DNA of 64,000 nucleotides from Candidatus Gastranaerophilales bacterium. Lineage in GTDB: Bacteria > Cyanobacteriota > Vampirovibrionia > Gastranaerophilales > Gastranaerophilaceae. The translations under genes and the position numbers were made by a program. The DNA is taken from assembly GCA_944325555.1 (NCBI GenBank), contig CALVAN010000006.1, positions 22,998 through 86,997 of the forward strand, given 5' to 3'. Position 1 is the first letter of the stretch. Each line of letters opens with the position of its first letter. Positions 50,662 through 63,233 of this stretch are shown here, piece after piece. The notes below the pieces were generated by a model. That model had not been told where the DNA came from. It searched no databases and saw nothing but the letters and a program-made list of their open reading frames with translations.

Positions 50662-52719
50662 ATGAAAAAATTAATTACCTCATTTATCCTGACATCTTTT
50701 TTAGCTGCACCTTGTGCTTACGCACAGGACACGCTGCAAACAGCAAAAGCCGCAGAGCAAAAATCCGCAGCAGTGCAGGCACATACCATAAACCAACCCG
50801 TTATTCCGCAAAAGCTGGAAGCTGAAATAAAAGCTTCTATTGCTCAAATATACGGAAAAGAACACTGTGAAGAAATTTATAACAAAATCACTGAAATAGC
50901 ATCTCAAGCAATCAAAAACCGCCCTGCGGAACTGAAGAAAAATGATTTAAGCCGTTCAGATGACTGGTATAAAGATGAAATTATTTATATGTTTTATACA
51001 GACCAGTTTGGCGTAAGCAACACTGACGGAAAAAATACTTTCAAAGATACAGAAAGAATGTTCGGATATCTTAAAGATCTGGGTGTTACAACATTGTATA
51101 TGCTTCCGTTTGCGGATTCGCCCATGCAGGATTCAGGTTTTGACGTAAAAAATCCCAGAGATGTCCGCTCGGACTTGGGGGGAATGAAAGAGTTCAAAGA
51201 CTTTATCTCAAAGGCAAAAAAATATGGGTTTAAAATTAAGGCAGATTTGGTGCTAAACCATTTTTCACAGGAGCATGAATGGTTTAAACAGATAGAAAAA
51301 GGCGATTTGTCCAAACTTGATTACTTTGTAGTTACGGATGAAATGCCTCTTTATAAAAAATATCAGGACGAAAAACTCGGAACAGTGGTTGAGTATTTTG
51401 AAAAAGACGGCAGCGTGTCTAAAAGGAGGCTAATCTTCCCCGAAAACACCGAAAACCACTGGCGTAAAGTCACAATAAACGGAAAAGACTACTATTTTTA
51501 TCATACGTTTTATCCGTTTCAGCTTGATATAAACTGGGAAAATCCCGAGGTTTTATATTATTGTCTTGAAACAATAAGCTACTGGAGCAATATGGGGATT
51601 GATATTTTCCGAATGGATGCAATTCCATACCTGTCAAAAGAACCCGGAACCAATGCGGAAAATCAGCCCAAAACACACGCAATAATCCGCTTGTTAAGCA
51701 ATTATATTCAGGCAACTGCTCCTTCTTCCGTTATTCAGGTGGAAGCCTGCCAGCATCCGAAGGAGATTTTGCAGTATTTTGGCAAAGAAAGAACAGTTGA
51801 CCTGAACATAGACAACAAAACAGAAACCTTAAAAAGGACAGATGAAGCCCAGATTGCTTATCATTTCCCGTACATGCCGGCTATATGGGCAAGTTTAATT
51901 ACTCAGGATAAAAAATATTTCTTGGAAGCAAACAAAGAAACTCCGGCTATTCCGGAATCAGCGGCGTGGGCAATGTTTTTAAGGGTTCACGACGAGCTTA
52001 CTCTCGAGATGGTAACACCCGAGATAAGAGAAATTATCCACAACGACCTTGTTAAAAAGGGTGCGGATTTCAGAAAAGGTTTTGGAGTTAGCGGAAGGCT
52101 TGCCAACTTTCTGGATAATGATCCGGATAGAATAGAGCTTGCATTTTCAATATTGATGTCACTTCCGGGGATTCCTATTGTTTATTACGGTGATGAAATC
52201 GGTGCCAGAAACAACTTTAAAAACGCAAAAGAAACCGAACAGGAAAGAAAAGAACAGCAAACAAAATCAAAAACAAAATCAAAACTTTTAAGCTACTTTG
52301 ATTCCCGTGATATTCACAGGGGCAACATTCCGTATAAACTTTTCTACGGCTCGGCAAAGGACTATTATGAATTTAACAGCAAAGTTTACAAAAAGGTAAA
52401 AAATCTTATCCACCTCAGAAAAGAACTTCCCGTTATGTCGAGAGGCCAGTTTATTTTGCTGAACACCAAACTGCCTGCCAACTTTGCTTACATAAGAAAG
52501 GACAAAGACAAACAGATTCTTGTTGTTAACAACCTTTCCGACAAAAAAATTACGGCGGAAATCACTTTGCCCGTTGACATTATCCTAAAAAACAACGGAC
52601 ACATAAGAGTGCTGAAAAACCTAATAAACGACGACAACGTAAGAGTTAATCTTTCGCTTAAAAACAAGACAATGCACCTGAGAGTAAAACCCTACGGCGT
52701 CTTGTGGCTTGAATTATAA
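50662..52719 (+). CDS. Secreted GH13 alpha-amylase-family enzyme (amylosucrase / trehalose-synthase-like subgroup)
   Basis: Signal peptide (..LAAPCAYA). GH13 regions: DLVLNHFSQEH (I), GIDIFRMDAIPYL (II), VEACQ (III) and FLRVHDELTLE (IV). Confidence 0.85.
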   Translation: MKKLITSFILTSFLAAPCAYAQDTLQTAKAAEQKSAAVQAHTINQPVIPQKLEAEIKASIAQIYGKEHCEEIYNKITEIASQAIKNRPAELKKNDLSRSDDWYKDEIIYMFYTDQFGVSNTDGKNTFKDTERMFGYLKDLGVTTLYMLPFADSPMQDSGFDVKNPRDVRSDLGGMKEFKDFISKAKKYGFKIKADLVLNHFSQEHEWFKQIEKGDLSKLDYFVVTDEMPLYKKYQDEKLGTVVEYFEKDGSVSKRRLIFPENTENHWRKVTINGKDYYFYHTFYPFQLDINWENPEVLYYCLETISYWSNMGIDIFRMDAIPYLSKEPGTNAENQPKTHAIIRLLSNYIQATAPSSVIQVEACQHPKEILQYFGKERTVDLNIDNKTETLKRTDEAQIAYHFPYMPAIWASLITQDKKYFLEANKETPAIPESAAWAMFLRVHDELTLEMVTPEIREIIHNDLVKKGADFRKGFGVSGRLANFLDNDPDRIELAFSILMSLPGIPIVYYGDEIGARNNFKNAKETEQERKEQQTKSKTKSKLLSYFDSRDIHRGNIPYKLFYGSAKDYYEFNSKVYKKVKNLIHLRKELPVMSRGQFILLNTKLPANFAYIRKDKDKQILVVNNLSDKKITAEITLPVDIILKNNGHIRVLKNLINDDNVRVNLSLKNKTMHLRVKPYGVLWLEL

Positions 52720-53106
52720 AGTGTTCAAATACATCATTCCGTAGTTTAAATACGTTGCAAAACATACCCACAAAAAGTACGGAACAAGCAGCGCCGCAGA
52801 TACTTTGGATACCTTGTAAAATTCCGCCATAGTCATAAACACAAATATCAGCATTAAAATTATTATGACAAAACTCATGATTATGTTTTGCAAATAAAAA
52901 AACGCAGGCGCCCAGCACAAATTAAGCACCATTTGTATTCCGAAAAGAAAATAGCCGAGTTTTTTGTCCTTGTCGGTTTTTGTATAAATAAAAGTAAACA
53001 AAGCAAGAAAAATAAGCACATACAGATAAATCCACGCAGGGGTAAAAACCTGCCCCGGCGGGGTAAATGCAGGCTTATTCAAAGATTCGTACCATATCAT
53101 ATCCAT
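52714..53106 (-). CDS. tspO: TspO/MBR family protein, apparently lacking the first TM helix
   Basis: It starts MDMIWYESLNKPAFTPP.QVF.PAW..LY, which corresponds to the loop after TM1 in canonical TspO. An in-frame TAA lies 9 codons upstream of the ATG. It overlaps the GH13 gene by 6 nt (convergent). Confidence 0.65.
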   Translation of the reverse strand: MDMIWYESLNKPAFTPPGQVFTPAWIYLYVLIFLALFTFIYTKTDKDKKLGYFLFGIQMVLNLCWAPAFFYLQNIIMSFVIIILMLIFVFMTMAEFYKVSKVSAALLVPYFLWVCFATYLNYGMMYLNTL

Positions 53107-53290: not shown

Positions 53291-53842
53291 TCAGATTCTT
53301 TTGTGCATGCTGCCGATAGAAGATGTTCCTGAAGAGGAATTGCTCGTGCTGCTGCCAAGGAGTTTGTTTAAAAGGTCATCACCGTTATTTGCGGCTTTTC
53401 TGTAGGTGTCGGCATAAATACCCGTGCCTATATCCGTTTTGTCTTCACCTTTTTTAAGACCCTGCAAACGAAGCTGTCCCGCTTTGATGACTTTGTCGAG
53501 AGTTGTAAAGTCAATGTCCGACATATTGTAGTGGTTGTACAGTGCAAAAAACTTGATTGACTGAGCCTCTGCAATCATTGCTTCGATGGCGGAGCGGTTT
53601 TTAGTTGCGATGTTTGAAATATCAAGGTTTGCCAGCCTCTGGCGCAATACGTCAGTGTTTTCGTTTTTCAAACGCTGAAAATTCTCCTGCTCCTGCTGAG
53701 CCATACGGATACGATACTCTTCGGGAGTTTCTGTAACCTTGCGGATATTTCTTGCGCTTTCTAAAGCCTCATCTCTTTGCTTTTGCATATCTTTTGAAAA
53801 CGGCGAGGTAATATACGCATCGATGTTCATTTCGTCCGACAT
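53291..53842 (-). CDS. Orphan 183-aa protein, helical, Ser-rich C-terminus
   Basis: The ORF is followed downstream by the hairpin CCGCCATAC...GTATGGCGG (53139-53169). No family recognised. Confidence 0.55.
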   Translation of the reverse strand: MSDEMNIDAYITSPFSKDMQKQRDEALESARNIRKVTETPEEYRIRMAQQEQENFQRLKNENTDVLRQRLANLDISNIATKNRSAIEAMIAEAQSIKFFALYNHYNMSDIDFTTLDKVIKAGQLRLQGLKKGEDKTDIGTGIYADTYRKAANNGDDLLNKLLGSSTSNSSSGTSSIGSMHKRI

Positions 53843-53946: not shown

Positions 53947-53992
53947 CGTCATGCTGAGGAGCGAAGCGAGCCCAGGATCTGTACAAATTAGC
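53947..53992 (+). repeat. Partial copy of the TGTCAT...CAGGATCT element
   Basis: CGTCATGCTGAGGAGCGAAGCGAGCCCAGGATCTGTACAAATTAGC; compare 5581-5625. Confidence 0.7.
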
Positions 53993-54044
53993 AAACGAAG
54001 TCAACGAACTTTATGCAGTAAGAAAAAACAATCAAAGCAAAATC

Positions 54045-54171
54045 ATCCCCTCACCCTACCCCTCTCCCCCGGAGAGGGAACAAAAAAAATAATATAGACA
54101 AGCTAAAGTTTGCACAAAACCCGCTTTACAATCCCCACCCTCACCCTTCCCTTCTCCCCCGGAGAGGGAAC
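54045..54171 (+). repeat. Two copies of a C-rich box ending in the hairpin CCCTCTCC-CCC-GGAGAGGG (54045-54081, 54131-54171)
   Basis: ATCCCCTCACCCTACCCCTCTCCCCCGGAGAGGGAAC and ATCCCCACCCTCACCCTTCCCTTCTCCCCCGGAGAGGGAAC. The second stem has one T-G pair on the plus strand. Confidence 0.85.
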
Positions 54172-54213
54172 CGACAACAATAATGCGGGTATGCGGGAGT
54201 CTGTCCTGCTACT

Positions 54214-56064
54214 TTAGATCCATTCCTCAATTTCTTTTTTAGATACTCCCCATTCATGCCCGAAGGTTCTGCCCTTTACGTTGCAATATTTACAAAACGG
54301 TATGGGTTTAGCTAAAAAGGCAAGAATTTCTGCCATAGATTTTACTTTGTATATATCTATATAATTTCTGTCATCAATAATCATATTTTCTTTAAAATAT
54401 TTGTTAAAGTGATGTGCATTAGCCGCAGGAGAGCACGTATATATTTTGCCATCATGGATACCAATACACTGGTTTGCATGAAAACAATTAATAAAATTTT
54501 CTCTTGGGTCTTGCAATCCTTTTACATCAAAAGGTATATGATAACTTGTTTTTATTACGTCTGCGTTGTTGAAAAATGTAAAATTTACTCCATATTTAAG
54601 AGCAGTATTTTTTATTTTGTCATAATCTACTTTTATCGGATATTTTGTACAGGTAACCAGAATATCTAGCTTTTGCAAGAGATTCCAAAACTTTTCATCT
54701 TTGTCTTGTAACAAAATACCATTTGATTGAAGTCTTATTGTTGAATCGGGAAAATATTTTCTGGCAACTTCAAACATTTCTAAAATGTTTGGATTCATCA
54801 ACGCTTCACCGCCTGAAAGACTTATTTGTTTTAAATTGCCGTTTGTTAATTCTGCTAACCTTTTTATATCATTTGAAAAAGATTCAAGTGTAACAAATCT
54901 TTCTTCGGCAATTGGAGAACACACATCACAACACTTACAGTTTAGGTTGCAGTGATCAACAAGATGAAATCCTATACTGTCAAGATATGGACGAGGTGTA
55001 ATTCTTTTGATTTTTGCGTCAAAAATTGCCTCTTTATTTTGAATTAATTTTTCTATTCTATCAAATTTTGATTTTTTCCTTTTTAGTTTTATCTTTACAC
55101 CCAGTATTTTGTATGTTCTGTGTTTGTCGTCTTTTTCGTAGTTATATAAATTTTTTAACATAATTGACCCATACCTCTTTGTGCTATAAATAAAATATTT
55201 TTTTAATATCAAATTATAAAAACAAGATTTTTTAGCGTATTTCCACCAGTAATTTGCAAATACACACTGTTTATCCTGCCATGGTTTTATTTTGTCCGCA
55301 TAATGAATTATCAGTGGTTTTAAAATAGCCTCGGTCACAATGTCTTTACCAAATAAACCACATAATTTTTCGTATTCAGGTAATGTATTATCTAAAATAC
55401 TTTTGTATTTAGTCATCACATTATATTTGAACGGCAAATGCTTTATATTGTTATAAAAGACCTTGTTTATTACATCTTGATCTACAGTCGGATAATTTTT
55501 CAATGCTTCTTCACACAATACGGGGGTAAGATTATTTTCCCTTATTTTTTGCAGGTTCAAAACAATAACTCCGGCATTAATATACTGGTCTATTGAGGGT
55601 ATGCCAATTTTTTCGCAATAACTTTTTCCAGCTGCTTGTGAAAAATGATATGCTGGTGCTTTTACTCCTGCAACATAATTATCATCCAAATCAATAATAT
55701 ACAGTTGCGATAAATCACAGTTAACAATAGTATCCGTATCAAGATAGACACATTTGTCATATTTATCCGGTAATATTTCAGCGGCTCTTAATCTGTAATA
55801 CGTCTGCTCTGTGATATGAGAAACCATTTTTTTAGTTTGAGAAAAGGCATTTTGCATATTAACAAAATTGATTTGTTTATTGCTATAAAAAGTGCAGTCT
55901 TTTTCTATTTTAGTTTTGTATTCTTCTTTAAAATCATTCGGGACAAGCAGATAAAAATCAAAATACTGATTCGACTTTGCATTTTTGAGTATAGATATCA
56001 TTAATACGCTCATATACGGTGCATAATTATTATCTGCAGCAAGTATTACAGGAATTGTCACCAT
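54214..56064 (-). CDS. Fusion protein: GT8 glycosyltransferase (N) + radical SAM enzyme with C-terminal Cys-rich (SPASM/twitch-like) region (C)
   Basis: N-terminus: VILAADNNYAPYMSVLMISILKN, YLDTDTIV, NAGVIVLNL (GT8). C-terminus: FHLVDHCNLNCKCCD (CX3CX2C, aa 372-379; nt 54928-54951), ISLSGGEALMNP (GGE motif), and later C527, C533, C544, C591/C594. Confidence 0.8.
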   Translation of the reverse strand: MVTIPVILAADNNYAPYMSVLMISILKNAKSNQYFDFYLLVPNDFKEEYKTKIEKDCTFYSNKQINFVNMQNAFSQTKKMVSHITEQTYYRLRAAEILPDKYDKCVYLDTDTIVNCDLSQLYIIDLDDNYVAGVKAPAYHFSQAAGKSYCEKIGIPSIDQYINAGVIVLNLQKIRENNLTPVLCEEALKNYPTVDQDVINKVFYNNIKHLPFKYNVMTKYKSILDNTLPEYEKLCGLFGKDIVTEAILKPLIIHYADKIKPWQDKQCVFANYWWKYAKKSCFYNLILKKYFIYSTKRYGSIMLKNLYNYEKDDKHRTYKILGVKIKLKRKKSKFDRIEKLIQNKEAIFDAKIKRITPRPYLDSIGFHLVDHCNLNCKCCDVCSPIAEERFVTLESFSNDIKRLAELTNGNLKQISLSGGEALMNPNILEMFEVARKYFPDSTIRLQSNGILLQDKDEKFWNLLQKLDILVTCTKYPIKVDYDKIKNTALKYGVNFTFFNNADVIKTSYHIPFDVKGLQDPRENFINCFHANQCIGIHDGKIYTCSPAANAHHFNKYFKENMIIDDRNYIDIYKVKSMAEILAFLAKPIPFCKYCNVKGRTFGHEWGVSKKEIEEWI

Positions 56065-56069
56065 TTTAT

Positions 56070-56852
56070 TTAGACTCCTCTTTTAAATTTCACTTTTGCG
56101 CCAAGTATTCTTAGTACTTTATGGTTATTTTCGTTTTTTATGGAAAATATATTTTGCTTAAATTCTTCTTTTGCTCGTTTTTTATCAATTATCAATTTAG
56201 CATCTTGCAATGATTCGGTATTAGTTATTCTCGCATAATTGTTATCTTCAGAATATTTTAATAATACTTTTTCAATGAATATCGGTTTCTCTTTTTTTGT
56301 ATATCTGAGTATCAAATCCCAATCAACCAATCTTTTTAAATTTGTGTCAAATTTGCCATACTTTAAAATTAAAGATTTATTATGCACAAAGACACCAAGA
56401 TCAATAAAATTTGCGTTTTGTAATTGTTCATAATTAAAGGGGTGACCTATAATCCGACCGTCAGTTCTTAACAACCGGCTATAAAAGATTGTATTTTTAG
56501 GGTTTTTAATTATTGTTTTTTGGAATGTTTCCAAAAAATCGGGCAGCATTTCATTATCGCTGTCAAGATAACCTATCCAATTATTATATGCCGATTTCAA
56601 CCCTACATTTCTTGCATTACATACACCCTTATTTTGTTTCAATTTTTTATATACTATCTTTTTTGTGTGTAATTCCTTCACATATTTTTCTTTTATCAAT
56701 TTTTCGGTATCATCAGTTGAACCGTCGTCAACAATAATTAATTCAAAATCCTGATATGTCTGCTTTAATAATGAGTCTATGGCATTTTGAATACAAAAAG
56801 CTCTGTTATATGTCGCCATTATTATTGAAAATTTCACGCTTCTACTAAACAT
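56070..56852 (-). CDS. GT2 family glycosyltransferase
   Basis: FSIIMATYNRAFCIQNAIDSLLKQTYQDFELIIVDDGSTDDT and a YLDSDN (DxD-type) motif. The C-terminal tail is IFSIKNENNHKVLRILGAKVKFKRGV. Confidence 0.85.
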   Translation of the reverse strand: MFSRSVKFSIIMATYNRAFCIQNAIDSLLKQTYQDFELIIVDDGSTDDTEKLIKEKYVKELHTKKIVYKKLKQNKGVCNARNVGLKSAYNNWIGYLDSDNEMLPDFLETFQKTIIKNPKNTIFYSRLLRTDGRIIGHPFNYEQLQNANFIDLGVFVHNKSLILKYGKFDTNLKRLVDWDLILRYTKKEKPIFIEKVLLKYSEDNNYARITNTESLQDAKLIIDKKRAKEEFKQNIFSIKNENNHKVLRILGAKVKFKRGV

Positions 56853-56877
56853 TTTTACCTCTACATTAAACTCTTTT

Positions 56878-59262
56878 TTATAAATACTTCTTTTTTATCA
56901 ATAAGTCAGCATTTTCCTTTTTCAGATACAGTTCACAAGGGTCAAAATCCACTTTTATTTCGGGATAAAATGAGGCTTGTTTAAAACCTTTTGATAAAAT
57001 TAACTTACTTAATCCCATTTCATAATTAAAAATTATGTCCTCTTTTATTTTTTCTTTTTTTATATTGTTAACAAACCGGTCAAACCAATCATTTTTGAAA
57101 ATATTTTTAGAAAATGAAACAAAATAACTTTGAATATGCGGCGCATATCCCCAACCGTATTCGACTTGATTTTTGTGATTTTTGATAAATCCAAATAAAT
57201 GTTGTGTTACTCCATAAAAATCTTTTTGTTTTAATTCATTAAAAACTTGTTCCAAACTATTACCGACAAACACAACACTATCATTGATAAATAATAAATT
57301 GTTTATATCATTTAGTATTCCCATATTTTTTAATAGAGAATAACCTCTTTTGTATGAACCGAAATCATATTCATCGTGTTTTTTAAAAATTATTGCATCA
57401 ACAAGGTTTTTAACTTTGTCTGATTCTTCCGGTATAATAGGGTGATCAGCAGATAAAACAATATATCCTGCATATTTGCGTAACTCAGTAAGATATTTAA
57501 TCAAATTATCATCTAAAATTGCATTATTATTATGCATTGCAAATACAACTGCATTTTTGTTACTTTTGATTTCTGAATTAAATACTTCAGTTATTTTTTG
57601 AGCACGTTTTGGATATTTTTGTTTACGTTTTGGCACCAGTCTGTATTTATAACCAAGAACAGTAATAATCTTGAATGATTTATAGTAAGAATTTTTTATT
57701 GAAAAAATCTTCTTTAAAAAAGCTTTAAAAGAATTTATCAGTTCTTGTTTTACATCTCTAACACCATAAATATTCATCCCCTGCATTTCAATTATTGTTC
57801 CTAACAAGCGTTCCAGAGCATGAATCGGTGTAGCAGTTATACTTGTTTCAGGATTATTAACAAAAAAATAGTTTTCATCAAAATCCAAATTTTTTAATAA
57901 TTCAAATAATGAAGCTTTGCATAAAAACATTGTTCCTGCTATAAAATTCCCTTTTAAATTTGGTAAATTTAATTTTTGGCACACTTCATCATATATAAGT
58001 ATATCTTTTGGAGGATGGTTTTTAGATAACGACATTTTGCAGTAGTTAGCACCAATCATACCTGTATTTGGATGATTTTTAAAATATTTTAAACAATTAA
58101 AAAAATGATGTTTGGAGCTTAACACAGCGTTAACAAGAGTATCTCTCCAACCAAATTTCTTTTGCCATTTTGTACATTGCGGATTATTTTGGTAGGCTTT
58201 AGTATGCAGTTTAAGAATATAATCATATTTTTTTAAATCCACCATTTTTAGAACTTGAATAAATGGCATAATATCAAATCCGTGATTAGTTACTTTGATA
58301 AATATCGTATCCGATTTCAGATTTAAAATTTTGTTTTTCATTTCTTCATTTTCTTCTGTATAAGTGACATATAAATCCCACATACAATGATTTATATTAC
58401 TTAATTTTTTAATCCAAAAATCAATTTGTTCATGATAATACAAATGGAAATGTACAAGAACTCTTGGTTTTGGGAAAATTTTCATATAGTATTTAATACC
58501 AAGAATAGTAATTATTTTATGTATTCCGTCATCCGAGTTACGTATAGAAAAAATTTTTTCTGTAAAACTAATTTTCTTTCTGTATAAACAGTGCTTTTTA
58601 AAATTATTGTCAATTTTTGCATAATTATACAGATCAGATTCTTTTATTTTCTTAAATGCAGAATCTTGAGAAGATAGAGAAGTTAAGTGTTTGACATTTC
58701 CACCGATAATTTCATAATTTATTTTTTTTGCGTCATTGTTTTTTTTCATCAAATAATTGTCGCCACACCAGATTTTTAAATTTTGAGGAATGTTATAATA
58801 ATTTTCTTTTTTACCAAATATGGCAGATCCCCAATACCTGCTGTATAAAGTGTATTTATAAGGTTTAAACTTTAGATTTTTATTTTGAGGATATGTATTA
58901 AATTCTTCCAGAGGAGTATTATGTACAATAGTAGAATCTAAACCTACCAACCCTATATTCTCATTGCTTTTTATAAATTCATATACCTGAGAACAAAAAT
59001 TTTGCGGTAGTATAATATCGTCATTTAATATACCAAAGTAATTATTCTGAATGTTGTTTATTCCAAGATTCCACGCTGCATTAACATATAAATTTTCATA
59101 TGGAATTATTACTTTTACTTTTGGAGAAGCAAAAACATAACCCTTTAATGAATTATCAATAATAACAATCTCGTTAATCACATCGTCGTCAACAAGTTCA
59201 TTAACAAGTTTGTTTAATACCTCAATATTTTTTTGTATAGTTGGTATAACTATTGATAACAT
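56878..59262 (-). CDS. Three-module glycosyltransferase-like protein (GT2-like N-module + two modules resembling rhamnan-synthesis-protein-F/RgpF halves)
   Basis: aa 1-230: SIVIPT....EIVIIDNS. aa 265-515: VLVHFHLYYHEQIDFWIKKLSNI...DLYVT...AGTMFLCKASLF (RgpF-like as I recall the family). aa 550-794: AVVFAMHNNN...YDFGSYKRGY...FINDSV. The modules are separated by two copies of the FSI(K/R)N...ILG.KY motif. Confidence 0.55.
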   Translation of the reverse strand: MLSIVIPTIQKNIEVLNKLVNELVDDDVINEIVIIDNSLKGYVFASPKVKVIIPYENLYVNAAWNLGINNIQNNYFGILNDDIILPQNFCSQVYEFIKSNENIGLVGLDSTIVHNTPLEEFNTYPQNKNLKFKPYKYTLYSRYWGSAIFGKKENYYNIPQNLKIWCGDNYLMKKNNDAKKINYEIIGGNVKHLTSLSSQDSAFKKIKESDLYNYAKIDNNFKKHCLYRKKISFTEKIFSIRNSDDGIHKIITILGIKYYMKIFPKPRVLVHFHLYYHEQIDFWIKKLSNINHCMWDLYVTYTEENEEMKNKILNLKSDTIFIKVTNHGFDIMPFIQVLKMVDLKKYDYILKLHTKAYQNNPQCTKWQKKFGWRDTLVNAVLSSKHHFFNCLKYFKNHPNTGMIGANYCKMSLSKNHPPKDILIYDEVCQKLNLPNLKGNFIAGTMFLCKASLFELLKNLDFDENYFFVNNPETSITATPIHALERLLGTIIEMQGMNIYGVRDVKQELINSFKAFLKKIFSIKNSYYKSFKIITVLGYKYRLVPKRKQKYPKRAQKITEVFNSEIKSNKNAVVFAMHNNNAILDDNLIKYLTELRKYAGYIVLSADHPIIPEESDKVKNLVDAIIFKKHDEYDFGSYKRGYSLLKNMGILNDINNLLFINDSVVFVGNSLEQVFNELKQKDFYGVTQHLFGFIKNHKNQVEYGWGYAPHIQSYFVSFSKNIFKNDWFDRFVNNIKKEKIKEDIIFNYEMGLSKLILSKGFKQASFYPEIKVDFDPCELYLKKENADLLIKKKYL

Positions 59263-60311
59263 TCAAACTTATCTCCTTGTAATATATTTTTTCTTTTCAC
59301 AACAAACCTTTTCCCGAACACCACATACGTTTTATCTGTTTCCGTAGTTCTAATATCGAACACATCAAAAAACTTTTTGTGGTGATATTTGAACAAAATC
59401 AAATTCAACTTTCGGAAGTTACACATTTTTCGCTGCTCTGATTTTGTGAATGAATTTTTTATAAAATTCAAAAAGTCCGAAATATCCTTTTCGTACTGTT
59501 TTTTCAGCCCTTCGTCCGAACTTTTGCGCCAGTAATATATACAACCGCCTATAAAATGGTTCGTAGAGGCTATTTTCATCTGTCTTGACTGCTTTTTGTA
59601 TATTTCAGATTCTACTAATGCCTTGTATGCAGCAAAGTCATTTCTTATACAATTGGCAAATTTTTTGGTTGCCGCACCTTCTCTGTCATCACGGTAGTTG
59701 TACAATGTTTCTAAAATAAATGAATATTTTGGATTTTGATAAAATGTTTTAAGACAAAATACTAAATCTTCTGCATTTTTTATTCCCAATGGAAAATTTA
59801 TTTTATTTTTTTCTAAAAAATCTCTTTTAAACGCCTTGTTCCAAATATAAATCTGTATTTTTATTGTTTCTTTTAAAACATTATAATTTTCAATAAAATT
59901 TTTGATTTCTTTTAATGAACTAAAACCATCAATAATTTTTGTATTATTAACTGTTTTATATCCCCACATAATTATGTCGGAGTTTTCGGTATTTATTTTT
60001 TTAGAAACTTTTTCACATAGTGTCAAATCGTATGTATCATCAGGGTCAAGAAACATTATATATTCGCCGCGGGCGGTTTCAAGCCCTGCATTTCTTGCTG
60101 AGGATACTCCTTGATTATGCTGATTTATAAGTTTAATTCTCGAGTCTTTTTGAACGAAATTTTCAAGAATAGCAAGTGAATTATCAGTAGAACCATCGTT
60201 AATGCAAATGATTTCTATATCTGCAAAGGTTTGGTTTATTACACTTTCTATTGCAGCAGCAAGATAATTTTCTACATTATAAACGGGCATAATCACGGAT
60301 ATTTTAGGCAT
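59250..60311 (-). CDS. GT2 family glycosyltransferase
   Basis: ISVIMPVYNVENYLAAAIESVINQTFADIEIICINDGSTDNS and FLDPDD. I prefer the ATG at 60311. It overlaps the XRE gene stop by 8 nt (ATGCCTAA) and the next gene's start by 13 nt. Confidence 0.88.
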   Translation of the reverse strand: MPKISVIMPVYNVENYLAAAIESVINQTFADIEIICINDGSTDNSLAILENFVQKDSRIKLINQHNQGVSSARNAGLETARGEYIMFLDPDDTYDLTLCEKVSKKINTENSDIIMWGYKTVNNTKIIDGFSSLKEIKNFIENYNVLKETIKIQIYIWNKAFKRDFLEKNKINFPLGIKNAEDLVFCLKTFYQNPKYSFILETLYNYRDDREGAATKKFANCIRNDFAAYKALVESEIYKKQSRQMKIASTNHFIGGCIYYWRKSSDEGLKKQYEKDISDFLNFIKNSFTKSEQRKMCNFRKLNLILFKYHHKKFFDVFDIRTTETDKTYVVFGKRFVVKRKNILQGDKFECYQ

Positions 60312-60651
60312 AATTTTCTCCGTTATCCTGCACAATTGCCTTTAGCAACTTATACGAAAGCATCAGCTCCTGCGTATTCATTTTTTTAAGGAGCTGCAAT
60401 ATTTGCACTTCGCCGGTTCTGGGGGTGTATTTTTGCAGCGTTTTCAGCTCTTCTATCTCAAAATCCAGAACCTTTGAAATGTTCAAATACGTAGAAAGTT
60501 TAGGGATATATGTTCCGTCCTCTAACTTGCCGATATGGCGGGTGCTCAGCCCGACGAGTTTTGCCAGCTGCGCCTGCGTAAGCCCTTTTTGTCTTCGATA
60601 ATCTTTTATCAAAACTCCCAGTGATTTACTCAAGTTTTTTTCCGAAATCAT
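60304..60651 (-). CDS. XRE-family HTH regulator, first gene of the glycosyltransferase operon
   Basis: LIKDYRRQKGLTQAQLAKLVGLSTRHIGKLEDG is a classic Cro/CI-type HTH. The ATG at 60651 is preceded by GGGAAAG. The track start at 60654 is TTG. Confidence 0.8.
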   Translation of the reverse strand: MISEKNLSKSLGVLIKDYRRQKGLTQAQLAKLVGLSTRHIGKLEDGTYIPKLSTYLNISKVLDFEIEELKTLQKYTPRTGEVQILQLLKKMNTQELMLSYKLLKAIVQDNGENYA

Positions 60652-60674
60652 CAATTATCTTTCCCGTCTGTTAC

Positions 60675-60822: not shown

Positions 60823-61137
60823 ATGAATAATAAGCAATTACTAGGAAAAAGAATTAAAGAATTAAGAAAAGCGGCAAACCTCACGCAAGAAAGGCTTGCC
60901 GAACTTATTGATATCGAAACAGGCTCGCTCAGCGGAATTGAAAGCGGCAGACATTTTCCTTCTCTTACAACTCTGGAAAAAATTGCAAATCATCTTGACG
61001 TGGAATTAAAAACCCTCTTCGACTTCAAACACCTTATCTCCGTTGAAGAAATGAAAGCTTCTATAATTCAAAATATAGACAAAATCGACCGTGAGCAAAT
61101 TACTTTTATTTACAAATTTGTGGAAAACTTTAAATAA
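60823..61137 (+). CDS. XRE-family HTH regulator (divergent from the operon-leading XRE)
   Basis: LGKRIKELRKAANLTQERLAELIDIETGSLSGIESGRHFPSLTTLEKIANHL is a Cro/CI-type HTH. Confidence 0.8.
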   Translation: MNNKQLLGKRIKELRKAANLTQERLAELIDIETGSLSGIESGRHFPSLTTLEKIANHLDVELKTLFDFKHLISVEEMKASIIQNIDKIDREQITFIYKFVENFK

Positions 61138-61150
61138 TTTTTAGCGCAGG

Positions 61151-61738
61151 CTATCTTGCATAAATATCTTCTTTTTTAACGGCAAGATCCTCAGGCGCAT
61201 AATTTTTTAAATATTCTACCGCCTCTTGAGCGGTGTCCGCAAGAAAATACAGTTTTTGAGCTTTTTTGTTGGCAAACTTTTGATTAATAATTTCCTCAAA
61301 AAAATCCAAAAGTTTGTTATAAAAACCGTTTGTATTAAGTATAACAATCGCCTTTTGATTGTAGCCAAGCTGTTTTTGCACAATCATCTCGCTTAATTCC
61401 TCAAGCGTGCCAAACCCGCCGGGCAGAGCAACCAAAGCGTCGGATAGCTCGTCCATTTTTGCTTTCCTGCTTCTCATACAGGGGGTTAAGTAAAATTCAT
61501 CGCAATAATCCGAAAAAACATCCATTTCATGCAATTTTTGCGGCATCACTCCGATAATTCTGCCGCCGTTTTCCTTCACCTTCTGCGCACACGCCCACAT
61601 CAAACCAAGACAGCTTCCTCCGTAAACCATATCCATATCAGCACCGGCAAGCAGTGTACCCAGTTCTTTGGCAGCCTCGTAGTATGTTTCGTCCAAATAA
61701 TTACATGATGAAGCAAATACGCATACGGTGTTTATCAT
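61151..61738 (-). CDS. LOG family protein (TIGR00730; cytokinin riboside 5'-monophosphate phosphoribohydrolase-like)
   Basis: VYGGS..GLM........NGG..IGVMP and LPGGFGTLEELSE motifs. Confidence 0.88.
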   Translation of the reverse strand: MINTVCVFASSCNYLDETYYEAAKELGTLLAGADMDMVYGGSCLGLMWACAQKVKENGGRIIGVMPQKLHEMDVFSDYCDEFYLTPCMRSRKAKMDELSDALVALPGGFGTLEELSEMIVQKQLGYNQKAIVILNTNGFYNKLLDFFEEIINQKFANKKAQKLYFLADTAQEAVEYLKNYAPEDLAVKKEDIYAR

Positions 61739-61796
61739 CTCAATAACCTTTCAAAAAATACTGGTGATTAAACTCATCATAGCATATAATTATCTT

Positions 61797-63233
61797 ATGC
61801 CGGAAAAAATAAAGACAAATATTTATTATATTACGGTTGCACTGCTGCTGGCGGCAGGCATTATATTGAGGATTTTGTTTTACGCATACGGCCGCCCTTT
61901 TTGGAATGACGAATCCGCACTTGCAATAAACCTTGCCGGCAAAAGTTTCTGGGAACTGTTTCAGCCTCTTGTGCATGAACAAGTTACGCCGCCGTTGTAT
62001 GCCGTTTTATGCAAATTTTGCGGCTTGTTTACGGACAAAGCGGAATACGCTTACAGACTCCCTTCTCTTATTTGCGGAATTGCTTCATTGCCGCTGTTTT
62101 TGGCATTTGCAGAAAAAACGTTAAACAATAAAATCGGCAAAATCTTTGCAACAGCGCTTTTTGCTTTGAACTATCAACTGATATACTATTCGCAGGAGTT
62201 AAAACAGTATTCCTGCGACGTTTTGCTGTTTTTAGGGGTTTTAGTTTCATATTTTTATATTGACAGAAAGAAATTCGACAGAAAATTGTTTGTGCTTATC
62301 GGTTTGTTTTATGCAGTTTCGATATGGTTTTCATATACGTCATTGTTTGCAATGTTTGTTGTCTTCCTTTTATGCTTTATAAGAAAAGAAAAGGCTCTTA
62401 CAATTTTCGGCATACCTGCGTTATCCTTCGGCGTTTTTTTGTTTTACATAAAAAATTATGCAACAAGCGAAGCCCTGCACAATTTTTGGGACAACGGCTT
62501 TATTGCCTTGAATTTTTCAAACTTCCCGCTGCTGATATTCAACAACATTGTCTTTTATTTTCCGGATTTCAGCTGGAGAATTTTTGTTGTGCTGATGTTT
62601 GCTGCGGGGCTGATTTATACATTAAAATACATAAAATACAACGAGAATATTATTCTTTTAACTCCCGTTCTTCTTGCGGTTCTGCTTTCTTACCTGCATA
62701 TTTACCCGATGTATATAAGGACAGCACTGTATCTTCTGCCGGTTGTGTTTTTGATTATGGCAAAGACTTTTGAACCAAGCTTTTTCTATAAAAAAGAAGG
62801 CAAAATTATTGCGGGTATTCTTGCATTATTTTTTGCAGCATACACTTTTAAAACCGATTTTACGCAGATTTTGCAAAAAAAATATTACAGAGAAACCACC
62901 CCTGAACTATTACAGCTGTATAAAAGAGAAGCAAAAAACACCGATATTCTTATTGTACCGCATTTGACGGCAATAAATTATGAATATTACGTCCAAAGGA
63001 CTTCTCTGCCGGCGTGGAATGCCATTGTTATAACCCCTGAACTTTACGAATACGATAAGGTCAAAGAGATTTACAACACATTGCCTTCTGGCTCTTATTA
63101 TGTTTTGTTCACGCATTCGGGTGACAAAAATCTGGAATTTGAAAGTCTTAAAAAATACGCACTGTCACAAAAAAATCCTAAAATTTCATCGGATGAATAT
63201 AATAATGCGCTGATTTATTTTCAAAAGCAGTAA
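61797..63233 (+). CDS. GT-C fold glycosyltransferase (family 39 / ArnT / PMT-like), second copy in window
   Basis: A polytopic N-terminus with the first-loop motif PFWNDESALAIN, and a soluble C-terminal domain. I prefer the ATG at 61797 over the track start 61728, which would overlap the LOG gene. Confidence 0.6.
   Translation: MPEKIKTNIYYITVALLLAAGIILRILFYAYGRPFWNDESALAINLAGKSFWELFQPLVHEQVTPPLYAVLCKFCGLFTDKAEYAYRLPSLICGIASLPLFLAFAEKTLNNKIGKIFATALFALNYQLIYYSQELKQYSCDVLLFLGVLVSYFYIDRKKFDRKLFVLIGLFYAVSIWFSYTSLFAMFVVFLLCFIRKEKALTIFGIPALSFGVFLFYIKNYATSEALHNFWDNGFIALNFSNFPLLIFNNIVFYFPDFSWRIFVVLMFAAGLIYTLKYIKYNENIILLTPVLLAVLLSYLHIYPMYIRTALYLLPVVFLIMAKTFEPSFFYKKEGKIIAGILALFFAAYTFKTDFTQILQKKYYRETTPELLQLYKREAKNTDILIVPHLTAINYEYYVQRTSLPAWNAIVITPELYEYDKVKEIYNTLPSGSYYVLFTHSGDKNLEFESLKKYALSQKNPKISSDEYNNALIYFQKQ

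Follow-up and report, generated by a model that had tools for sequence, protein, structure and literature searches.

A stretch of 64,000 nucleotides (nt) from a Candidatus Gastranaerophilales bacterium (assembly GCA_944325555.1, contig CALVAN010000006.1, positions 22,998 to 86,997), called the window in the following, contains an operon in which all four proteins carry copies of the same small peptide tag of about 35 amino acids (aa). The operon comprises four closely spaced genes on the minus strand in the order D-C-B-A, whose stop and start codons overlap or almost touch. Its GC content amounts to 27-32% compared to about 36% in the flanks. The genes encode glycosyltransferases (GT2, GT8), RgpF modules and a radical S-adenosylmethionine (SAM) module:

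59250..60311, minus strand: gene D, GT2 glycosyltransferase (Pfam GT2, 3.4e-37)
56878..59262, minus strand: gene C, 794 aa, three modules (Pfam GT2 and two RgpF halves)
56070..56852, minus strand: gene B, single-module GT2 of 260 aa with the tag at its end (Pfam GT2, 1.3e-31)
54214..56064, minus strand: gene A, 616 aa, composed of GT8 (Pfam, aa 6-265), tag and radical SAM (Pfam, aa 370-464)

Protein C is built from a GT2 module (aa 1-228), a tag, an RgpF half (aa 269-510), a second tag and another RgpF half (aa 551-794). The first of these halves corresponds to positions 270-499 of the Pfam profile, with the match itself at aa 262-492, the second one corresponds to positions 9-168, with the match at about aa 609-771. 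The radical SAM module of A contains the cluster motif CNLNCKCC and is matched by NCBIfam radical SAM families. The tag copies are distributed over the four proteins as follows:

59274..59387, minus strand: tag of protein D, YHHKKFFDVFDIRTTETDKTYVVFGKRFVVKRKNILQG, aa 326-350 of 361, diverged, 7 residues before the C-terminus
58459..58578, minus strand: tag 1 of protein C, KKISFTEKIFSIRNSDDGIHKIITILGIKYYMKIFPKPRV, aa 237-263 of 794, at the junction between GT2 and the second module
57613..57732, minus strand: tag 2 of protein C, SFKAFLKKIFSIKNSYYKSFKIITVLGYKYRLVPKRKQKY, aa 519-547 of 794, at the junction between the second and the third module
56073..56174, minus strand: tag of protein B, AKEEFKQNIFSIKNENNHKVLRILGAKVKFKRGV followed by the stop codon, aa 235-260 of 260
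55060..55170, minus strand: tag of protein A, GSIMLKNLYNYEKDDKHRTYKILGVKIKLKRKKSKFD, aa 311-333 of 616, at the junction between GT8 and radical SAM

A recurrent motif in all four operon proteins had been proposed in a first-pass annotation of this DNA. Its five copies were recovered at the places given there, and their peptides translate from the minus strand as quoted; for D, nt 59289-59369 read FDVFDIRTTETDKTYVVFGKRFVVKRK, a trivial shift of 2-3 residues from the quoted string. An external hidden Markov model (HMM) was composed of 181 copies, all from proteins of other organisms, and run on the six-frame translation of the whole window. It scored the tag of B with 48.3 bits, tags 1 and 2 of C with 45.8 and 31.3 bits, respectively, and the tag of A, whose first strand is degenerate, with 18.2 bits (E 1e-4). 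The next best segment of the window reached 10.6 bits, and the best E-values in the window reached 4e-14. The copy in D was not detected by the external HMM in this translation. Because full-length homologs of D (30-38% identity) show the canonical motif at the corresponding place in the alignment and the close orthologs of D have the diverged form FDIRTT..K.Y..(M/F)GKK in common, D is, as judged by positional homology, the carrier of a degenerate copy. The motif is real: four copies are found by the external HMM, and the one in D is a diverged relative. A sixth copy was not found when the 64 kb were searched in six-frame translation with a profile made from the five copies. The codon for the conserved Ser varies between the copies (TCC, TCT, TCA) and, therefore, the constraint acts on the peptide.

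The consensus of the tag comprises about 35 residues and reads phi-phi-[QE]-x-I-F-S-phi-K-N-(loop)-H-K-phi-phi-T-phi-L-G-phi-K-phi-K-phi-K-[RK]-K-K, with phi denoting a hydrophobic residue. Among the 181 external copies, F is conserved in 99%, S in 98%, N in 96%, H in 84%, K24 in 99% and G in 99%, and the alternating positions of the last part, strand 3, are occupied by K in 81-92%. The loop from N to the conserved K has mostly 4 or 6 residues in tags from genome loci (see below). Using AlphaFold2 and an alignment of 46 sequences, the 40-aa tag 1 of C was modelled alone. The predicted local distance difference test (pLDDT) score was 84.3, with at least 80 in all five models, and the model shows a helix at residues 5-9 followed by strands at residues 10-14, 20-25 and 28-33. 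Within full-length C, tag 1 is predicted to form a helix at aa 233-237 and strands at aa 238-242, 248-253 and 256-261, and tag 2 a helix at aa 504-519 and strands at aa 520-524, 531-535 and 538-542. In this context, the pLDDT of the tags is about 71-82, and about 63 in the tail of tag 2. The tag is predicted to fold by itself into a short helix and a three-stranded antiparallel β-sheet, in which the conserved G sits in the tight turn joining strands 2 and 3. The β-hairpin-like pattern followed by basic residues that had been read from the sequence at first was roughly right; in the AlphaFold2 model, the sheet has a third strand, and it is this last strand in which hydrophobic and lysine side chains alternate. 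As judged from strand alternation and not from coordinates, F9, phi11, phi26, phi28, phi31, phi33 and phi35 would form a hydrophobic face of the sheet, and K12, K32, K34 and K36 together with S10, H23 and T27 would be located on the opposite face.

No model of Pfam-A 2025 or NCBIfam r20 covers the motif in the window proteins, in their sub-segments, in the consensus or in a four-copy array. The sole family signal was DUF3098 with 24.6 bits on the array of protein P0122, which is below the cut-off of 25 and probably spurious. This array comprises four tandem tags at aa 427-585 with a period of about 41 aa and follows a GT4 domain. An hmmsearch of the PDB sequences with the tag profile did not yield a match at E<=10, Foldseek with the 40-aa model did not reveal a significant relative (best E 0.86), and among 72,556 plasmids the consensus had no tblastn match at E<=1. 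The WW domain resembles the tag in being a portable, often repeated sheet of three antiparallel strands with a length of about 35-40 residues. A relationship was rejected: the consensus does not contain conserved Trp or Pro, a Pfam match was absent at E<=10, and no Foldseek match was significant. In addition, the tag is, unlike the WW domain, bacterial, cytoplasmic and lysine-rich. A description of such a tag or motif was not found in the searchable literature, which leaves out most subscription journals. Apparently, the tag is a so far undescribed portable mini-domain that matches no named family in Pfam, NCBIfam or PDB.

The tag is widespread. When the motif alignment was used for word-indexed protein searches, 4 and 637 candidates came up, mainly short fragments. 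In an index-free search of 1.84 billion cluster representatives with a profile of 40 positions, the tag was detected in 1,315 clusters (E<=1e-3) from gut and rumen bacteria; at E<=1e-10, the number was 70. Of 120 homologs of C, 69 are tagged, with 91 copies in total. These copies follow the first module (about aa 230-340) or sit at the C-terminus, and some of them are in tandem. In a scan of 185,579 species genomes with the strict pattern HK[VI][IV]TILGx[KR], 86 sites were confirmed, most of them in metagenome-assembled genomes (MAGs) of Gastranaerophilales, Melainabacteria or Vampirovibrio. The remaining sites belong to MAGs labelled Alphaproteobacteria, Bacilli, Oscillospiraceae, Acutalibacteraceae, Helicobacteraceae and Fusobacterium. 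All scanned loci are AT-rich (24-41% GC). The 77 genome loci contain 152 tagged open reading frames (ORFs), and in 44 of the 77 loci, 2-6 tagged ORFs are found inside 8 kb. On loci and window together, an HMM of the reversed sequence gave zero matches of at least 12 bits, compared to 179 with the forward model.

In the first-pass annotation, the motif was described as a module terminator that is C-terminal in single-module enzymes, sits at the junctions of fused enzymes and is absent after the last module. For the operon in the window, the placement at ends and module junctions is correct, and in the databases, too, tags concentrate at termini and junctions. Among the top profile matches of at least 200 aa, 105 copies are internal, 47 C-terminal and 10 N-terminal. 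The tags begin preferentially at aa 215-360 and aa 500-700, and for the majority of internal copies the distance to the C-terminus is about 245-340 aa. Where 2-4 tags follow one another in tandem, the period is about 41 aa. The motif lies outside the catalytic domains: in addition to the absence of a covering Pfam or NCBIfam model, all 22 tags in 10 multidomain proteins are located outside the Pfam domain envelopes, typically 30-40 residues past the end of GT8. As a general rule, the terminator did not hold. In the complete ORFs of the genome loci, 61 of 145 tags are C-terminal, 53 internal and 31 N-terminal, and tandem arrays exist. The N-terminal copies start 3-8 residues past the start codon, and the upstream gene ends in most cases within about 25 nt of that codon. 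Likewise, absence after the last module is not general, as many multi-module proteins end in a tag (P0008, P0087, P0123). Since N-terminal copies are genuine and multi-module proteins are often tag-ended, the tag is an end-or-junction unit of either polarity and not a terminator of the preceding module.

N-terminal tags often precede a coiled-coil-like stretch that is followed by the catalytic domain (L025:5226-6254, L057:2878-3969, L071:4303-5430; P0258, P0262, P0126). These stretches recall the stem or 'ruler' regions of other glycosyltransferases. The loop between N and the conserved K is short in 18 of 26 N-terminal tags and long in 35 of 46 C-terminal tags of the loci L004-L081 (chi-square p 8e-4, relatedness uncorrected). 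In tandem pairs, the order of loops was short-short in 8, long-short in 5, long-long in 3 and short-long in 3 cases. An ordered long-loop/short-loop code in tandem tags was rejected, as no order is preferred in these pairs.

The tagged ORFs belong to a variety of enzyme families with unrelated folds, all of which build or modify a glycan chain. GT2 is the most frequent one (54), followed by GT8 (11), TupA-like ATP-grasp (7), RgpF (7), Glyphos_transf (6) and Radical_SAM (6). Further tagged glycosyltransferases are GT4, DUF4422, WbsX, GT-D, GT29, GT32 and GT92. Tagged phospho-transferases include TagF-like glycerophosphotransferases, Stealth and LicD, with hexose-phosphate- and phosphocholine-transferases among them. 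Among the modifying enzymes, pyruvyl-, methyl- and acetyl-transferases, TupA-like ATP-grasp ligases and radical SAM enzymes carry the tag, as do FkbM and, among further polymer-building enzymes, KpsC/S-type capsule synthesis proteins. Radical_SAM was seen in 6 of 103 tagged ORFs. The untagged ORFs within the same 8 kb are mainly nucleotide-sugar enzymes, namely GDP-mannose dehydratase and epimerase (7), RmlD (6), NTP transferases (6), IspD (4), UDP-glucose dehydrogenase (3) and aminotransferases. The tag was not seen among the common nucleotide-sugar precursor enzyme families of these loci within the 8 kb windows. By contrast, 54 GT2 ORFs in the same loci are tagged and 11 are untagged. At least two transmembrane (TM)-like segments were found in 0 of 152 tagged ORFs compared to 34 of 342 untagged ones. 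The tag marks soluble enzymes that act on the growing glycan.

The tag is not an integral part of the GT-A fold of GT2 and GT8 enzymes. This candidate was rejected, as the tag is also located next to GT-B (GT4), RgpF, methyltransferase, radical SAM and ATP-grasp modules. In addition, tags adjoin TagF-like, Stealth and LicD domains and occur at free N-termini. The identity between tags is 0.50 within a locus and 0.50 between genomes, and a permutation was not significant. Concerted evolution or co-evolution of tags inside a locus was, therefore, rejected.

Comparison with a sister strain uncovered a difference that ends within the tag of B:

53960..56080, no strand assigned: strain-variable cassette (blastn of the window against sister strain L001)

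DNA homology between window and L001 (81%) extends from 62500 down to 56081 and starts again from 53959. The break at 56081 is located about 10 nt before the stop codon of B, within the basic tail of its tag. In the sister strain, the B-homologous GT2 reads through the tag into a phosphoribosyltransferase module, which is followed by a methyltransferase gene (L001:13160-14859); module and gene occupy the place of gene A. A second variant is represented by the proteins P0004 and P0005, which correspond to C minus its middle module. Here, the crossover is inside the tag: the junction consists of the flank of C tag 1 up to mid-tag and then the flank of C tag 2. This means, two variation breakpoints lie inside the tag. 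Furthermore, the radical SAM module of A is found as a separate protein in L020:5160-6089, where it has an N-terminal tag and is encoded downstream of a tag-ending gene. The tag would be a standard in-frame joint for fusing, splitting, deleting and exchanging modules. It is more likely that such exchange comes as a side effect than that the tag was selected for it, because tags of one locus are only about 50% identical and not homogenised. Slippery poly-A tracts that make fusion or truncation phase-variable were rejected, as runs of at least 8 A were present in 7% of the tag windows compared to 3% of the background.

For the function of the tag, a tether is favoured here, with a little less than even confidence. 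It is proposed that the tag is a common localisation tag for the polymer-acting enzymes and modules of a locus. Its putative lysine-lined face (K12, K32, K34, K36 with S10, H23 and T27) would bind to the cytoplasmic membrane, whose inner surface is anionic, or to the pyrophosphate-lipid carrier. Binding would keep each polymer-acting enzyme or module where the lipid-linked glycan gets assembled, and tandem tag copies would provide added avidity. This proposal is based on the observations that the carriers are TM-less and polymer-acting and that tags occur in tandem, which would give avidity, and on the prediction that one face of the sheet is lined with lysines. The target may be a universal one, since the consensus is constant across loci and lineages (0.50 versus 0.50 identity) and since the MAGs with the tag bear labels of diderm as well as monoderm lineages, if Melainabacteria, Alphaproteobacteria and Fusobacterium are taken to be diderm and Bacilli and Oscillospiraceae to be monoderm.

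Membrane-association peptides are known from other soluble enzymes. Examples are the C-terminal tail of basic and aromatic residues in the GT8 enzyme LgtC and, in MinD and FtsA, membrane-targeting sequences that form amphipathic helices. Like the tag, these peptides are short, non-catalytic, basic and hydrophobic and found on soluble enzymes that work at the inner membrane face. Unlike the tag, they are helical or unstructured, family-specific and strictly terminal, whereas the tag is a conserved β mini-domain that is shared by more than 20 enzyme families and also occurs internally and in tandem. An amphipathic helix of the MinD/FtsA type was rejected for the tag: AlphaFold2 predicts three β-strands, and the K/phi period of 2 fits a strand. 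Another system for comparison is WbdD, which recruits O-antigen glycosyltransferases to the membrane, together with coiled-coil 'ruler' proteins. As proposed for the tag, soluble polymer-building transferases are kept at the membrane by a non-catalytic element. Unlike the tag, WbdD belongs to another protein family, has a helical membrane-binding region and is a single recruiter, instead of a tag on each enzyme. Experimental work on these loci in Melainabacteria and other AT-rich gut and rumen bacteria was not found.

Several points weigh against a tether. Its support consists of co-occurrence, composition and the predicted fold. The faces of the sheet were assigned from strand alternation, and the sheet might also pack on the neighbouring catalytic domain. 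The near-invariant polar residues (S, N, H, K) fit a specific binding site better than a generic electrostatic anchor. Where membrane-targeting peptides are known from bacteria, they are amphipathic helices rather than sheets. The bias towards short loops in N-terminal and long loops in C-terminal tags could mean that two complementary classes exist, i.e. docking. In addition, the genome scan used a strict pattern and matched mostly MAGs, so that the taxonomic spread could include binning errors, and the protein sets are skewed to AT-rich gut and rumen organisms.

Docking between proteins is the alternative that survives best, although it appears rather unlikely. In this case, tags would pair by β-sheet augmentation or share a scaffold, and the enzymes of a locus would form one complex. 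This would agree with the tagging of several adjacent genes per locus, with the position of an N-terminally tagged gene after a C-terminally tagged one in 8 of 29 cases, and with tandem copies at fusion points. A three-stranded sheet with an exposed hydrophobic face, as predicted, needs a partner, near-invariant polar residues suggest a specific interface, the loop-length class tracks N- versus C-terminal position, and one common consensus is what homotypic pairing would need. However, neither covariation nor extra likeness is seen among the tags of one locus or protein, tandem pairs do not prefer an order of loop classes, and a recurrent non-enzymatic scaffold family is not apparent among the untagged neighbours. 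Moreover, strongly basic tags would repel each other unless they are neutralised by an anionic surface. Docking domains of polyketide synthases and nonribosomal peptide synthetases, including the β-hairpin types, as well as dockerin-cohesin are complementary, specificity-coded pairs. Like the tag, the docking domains of these synthases and synthetases are small portable end tags of successive pathway enzymes that are kept at junctions after fusion. In contrast to them, the tag has one consensus, with N- and C-terminal copies in a single family, no within-locus covariation, no ordered tandem pairing and no known partner.

Tether and docking are not mutually exclusive and can both hold. They meet in a 'zip code' metabolon, in which tags join by β-sheet augmentation on the anionic membrane, any enzyme that gains the unit plugs in, and the same unit provides the module joints. 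This combination is regarded as improbable.

It is quite improbable that the tag is only a structural cap or spacer, i.e. a folded linker that would lend stability or insulation to the neighbouring catalytic module and play no part in targeting. The very regular distances (30-40 residues past GT8 ends, and behind the helical extension in GT2 enzymes) and the moderate pLDDT in context (71-82) with linkers on both sides would be compatible with a cap. On the other hand, a cap would be expected neither at a free N-terminus ahead of a coiled-coil-like stretch nor in arrays that reach four copies, and the folds that adjoin the tag are unrelated (GT-A, GT-B, methyltransferase, radical SAM, ATP-grasp). 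Furthermore, the isolated tag folds confidently in AlphaFold2 and is conserved far above ordinary linkers.

A recombination joint as the selected function, in which the conserved coding sequence would supply homology for in-frame shuffling and, by this, diversify surface glycans, is very improbable. The breakpoints of two independent structural variants lie inside the tag, and the locus is strain-variable with a GC content below that of the flanks, as such a joint would have it. However, conservation is found at the amino-acid level with synonymous differences, and with about 50% amino-acid identity in a locus, the DNA is too dissimilar for homologous recombination to be efficient; homogenisation is not seen. 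The terminal tags of single-module enzymes would have no use in such shuffling, and poly-A tracts are scarcely above background.

A chance or compositional artefact of K-, I- and N-rich proteins in an AT-rich genome can practically be dismissed: every locus is indeed AT-rich and the external profile misses the copy in D, but the external-profile E-values in the window (to 4e-14), the reversed profile (0 versus 179 matches), the 70 clusters at E<=1e-10 in 1.84 billion proteins and the (nearly) invariant G, F, S, N and K argue against it. A self-cleaving element had been considered for the invariant F-S and H-K, which recall the HFS sites of the Nup98 type. It was rejected, as complete tags are present at both protein ends, a hint at processing was not seen, and 35 residues are too small for known autoproteolytic folds.

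Protein C deserves a comparison of its own. AlphaFold2 modelled the full-length protein with a pLDDT of 86 and a predicted template modelling score (pTM) of 0.45. In Foldseek, the best matches of this model were tandem GT-A polymerases, the Escherichia coli K4 chondroitin polymerase K4CP (2z86, E 2.8e-11) and the Pasteurella heparosan synthase 2 PmHS2 (8vh7/8vh8), which have several GT-A-like modules, as has C. The likeness concerns the carrier protein C and not the tag, as the chains of K4CP and PmHS2 have no match to the tag profile at E<=10. C is predicted to contain at least two GT-A modules per chain, which does not imply polymerase activity. Each half of the Pfam RgpF model (PF05045) behaves as a module of its own: in C, the two halves stand in reversed order (270-499 before 9-168), and elsewhere (P0004, P0010, P0047, P0092, P0093, P0110) the canonical order, the reversed order or one half is found.

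Upstream of gene D, a gene with a helix-turn-helix (HTH) domain is located:

60304..60654, minus strand: XRE-type HTH gene (Pfam HTH_3), stop codon overlapping the ATG of D by 8 nt

Because of this overlap, the HTH gene is probably the first gene of the operon. Translation of D starts probably at the ATG at 60311 rather than at the listed TTG at 60335, since homologs align from residue 9 of the ORF with the TTG start. This ATG is preceded by GGAG. The closest orthologs of D are found in Gastranaerophilales-like MAGs. A second XRE-type HTH gene (60823-61137) is also located upstream of the operon, in divergent orientation. The plus-strand gene at 61728-63233 adjoins the operon and encodes a protein of 501 aa that has about 8 TM-like segments, is not matched by Pfam and is kept in the sister strain (L001:6008-7441). 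It may be a membrane partner of the pathway, either a polymerase, a ligase or a GT-C-like enzyme. Downstream of the operon, two minus-strand genes are kept in the sister strain: one at 53291-53842 for a protein of 183 aa whose C-terminus is Ser-rich and for which Pfam gave no match, and one at 52714-53106 for a membrane protein of the TspO/MBR family.

The presence of the tag in at least 1,315 protein clusters (50% identity) would justify a new domain family. If the proposed function is true, a sequence rule would be available to separate polymer-acting from precursor enzymes in unannotated polysaccharide loci, and the tag would pinpoint the module boundaries of giant multidomain transferases. 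For engineering, it would offer a natural portable handle of 35 residues to target or combine glycosyltransferase modules. In terms of evolution, it would account for the in-frame fusion, splitting and exchange of modules. In the cell, many unrelated folds would be recruited alike to the site of glycan assembly, both in Melainabacteria and in other AT-rich gut and rumen bacteria. If the 'zip code' holds true, gut Melainabacteria and their neighbours would be able to diversify their surface polysaccharides rapidly in a plug-and-play manner.

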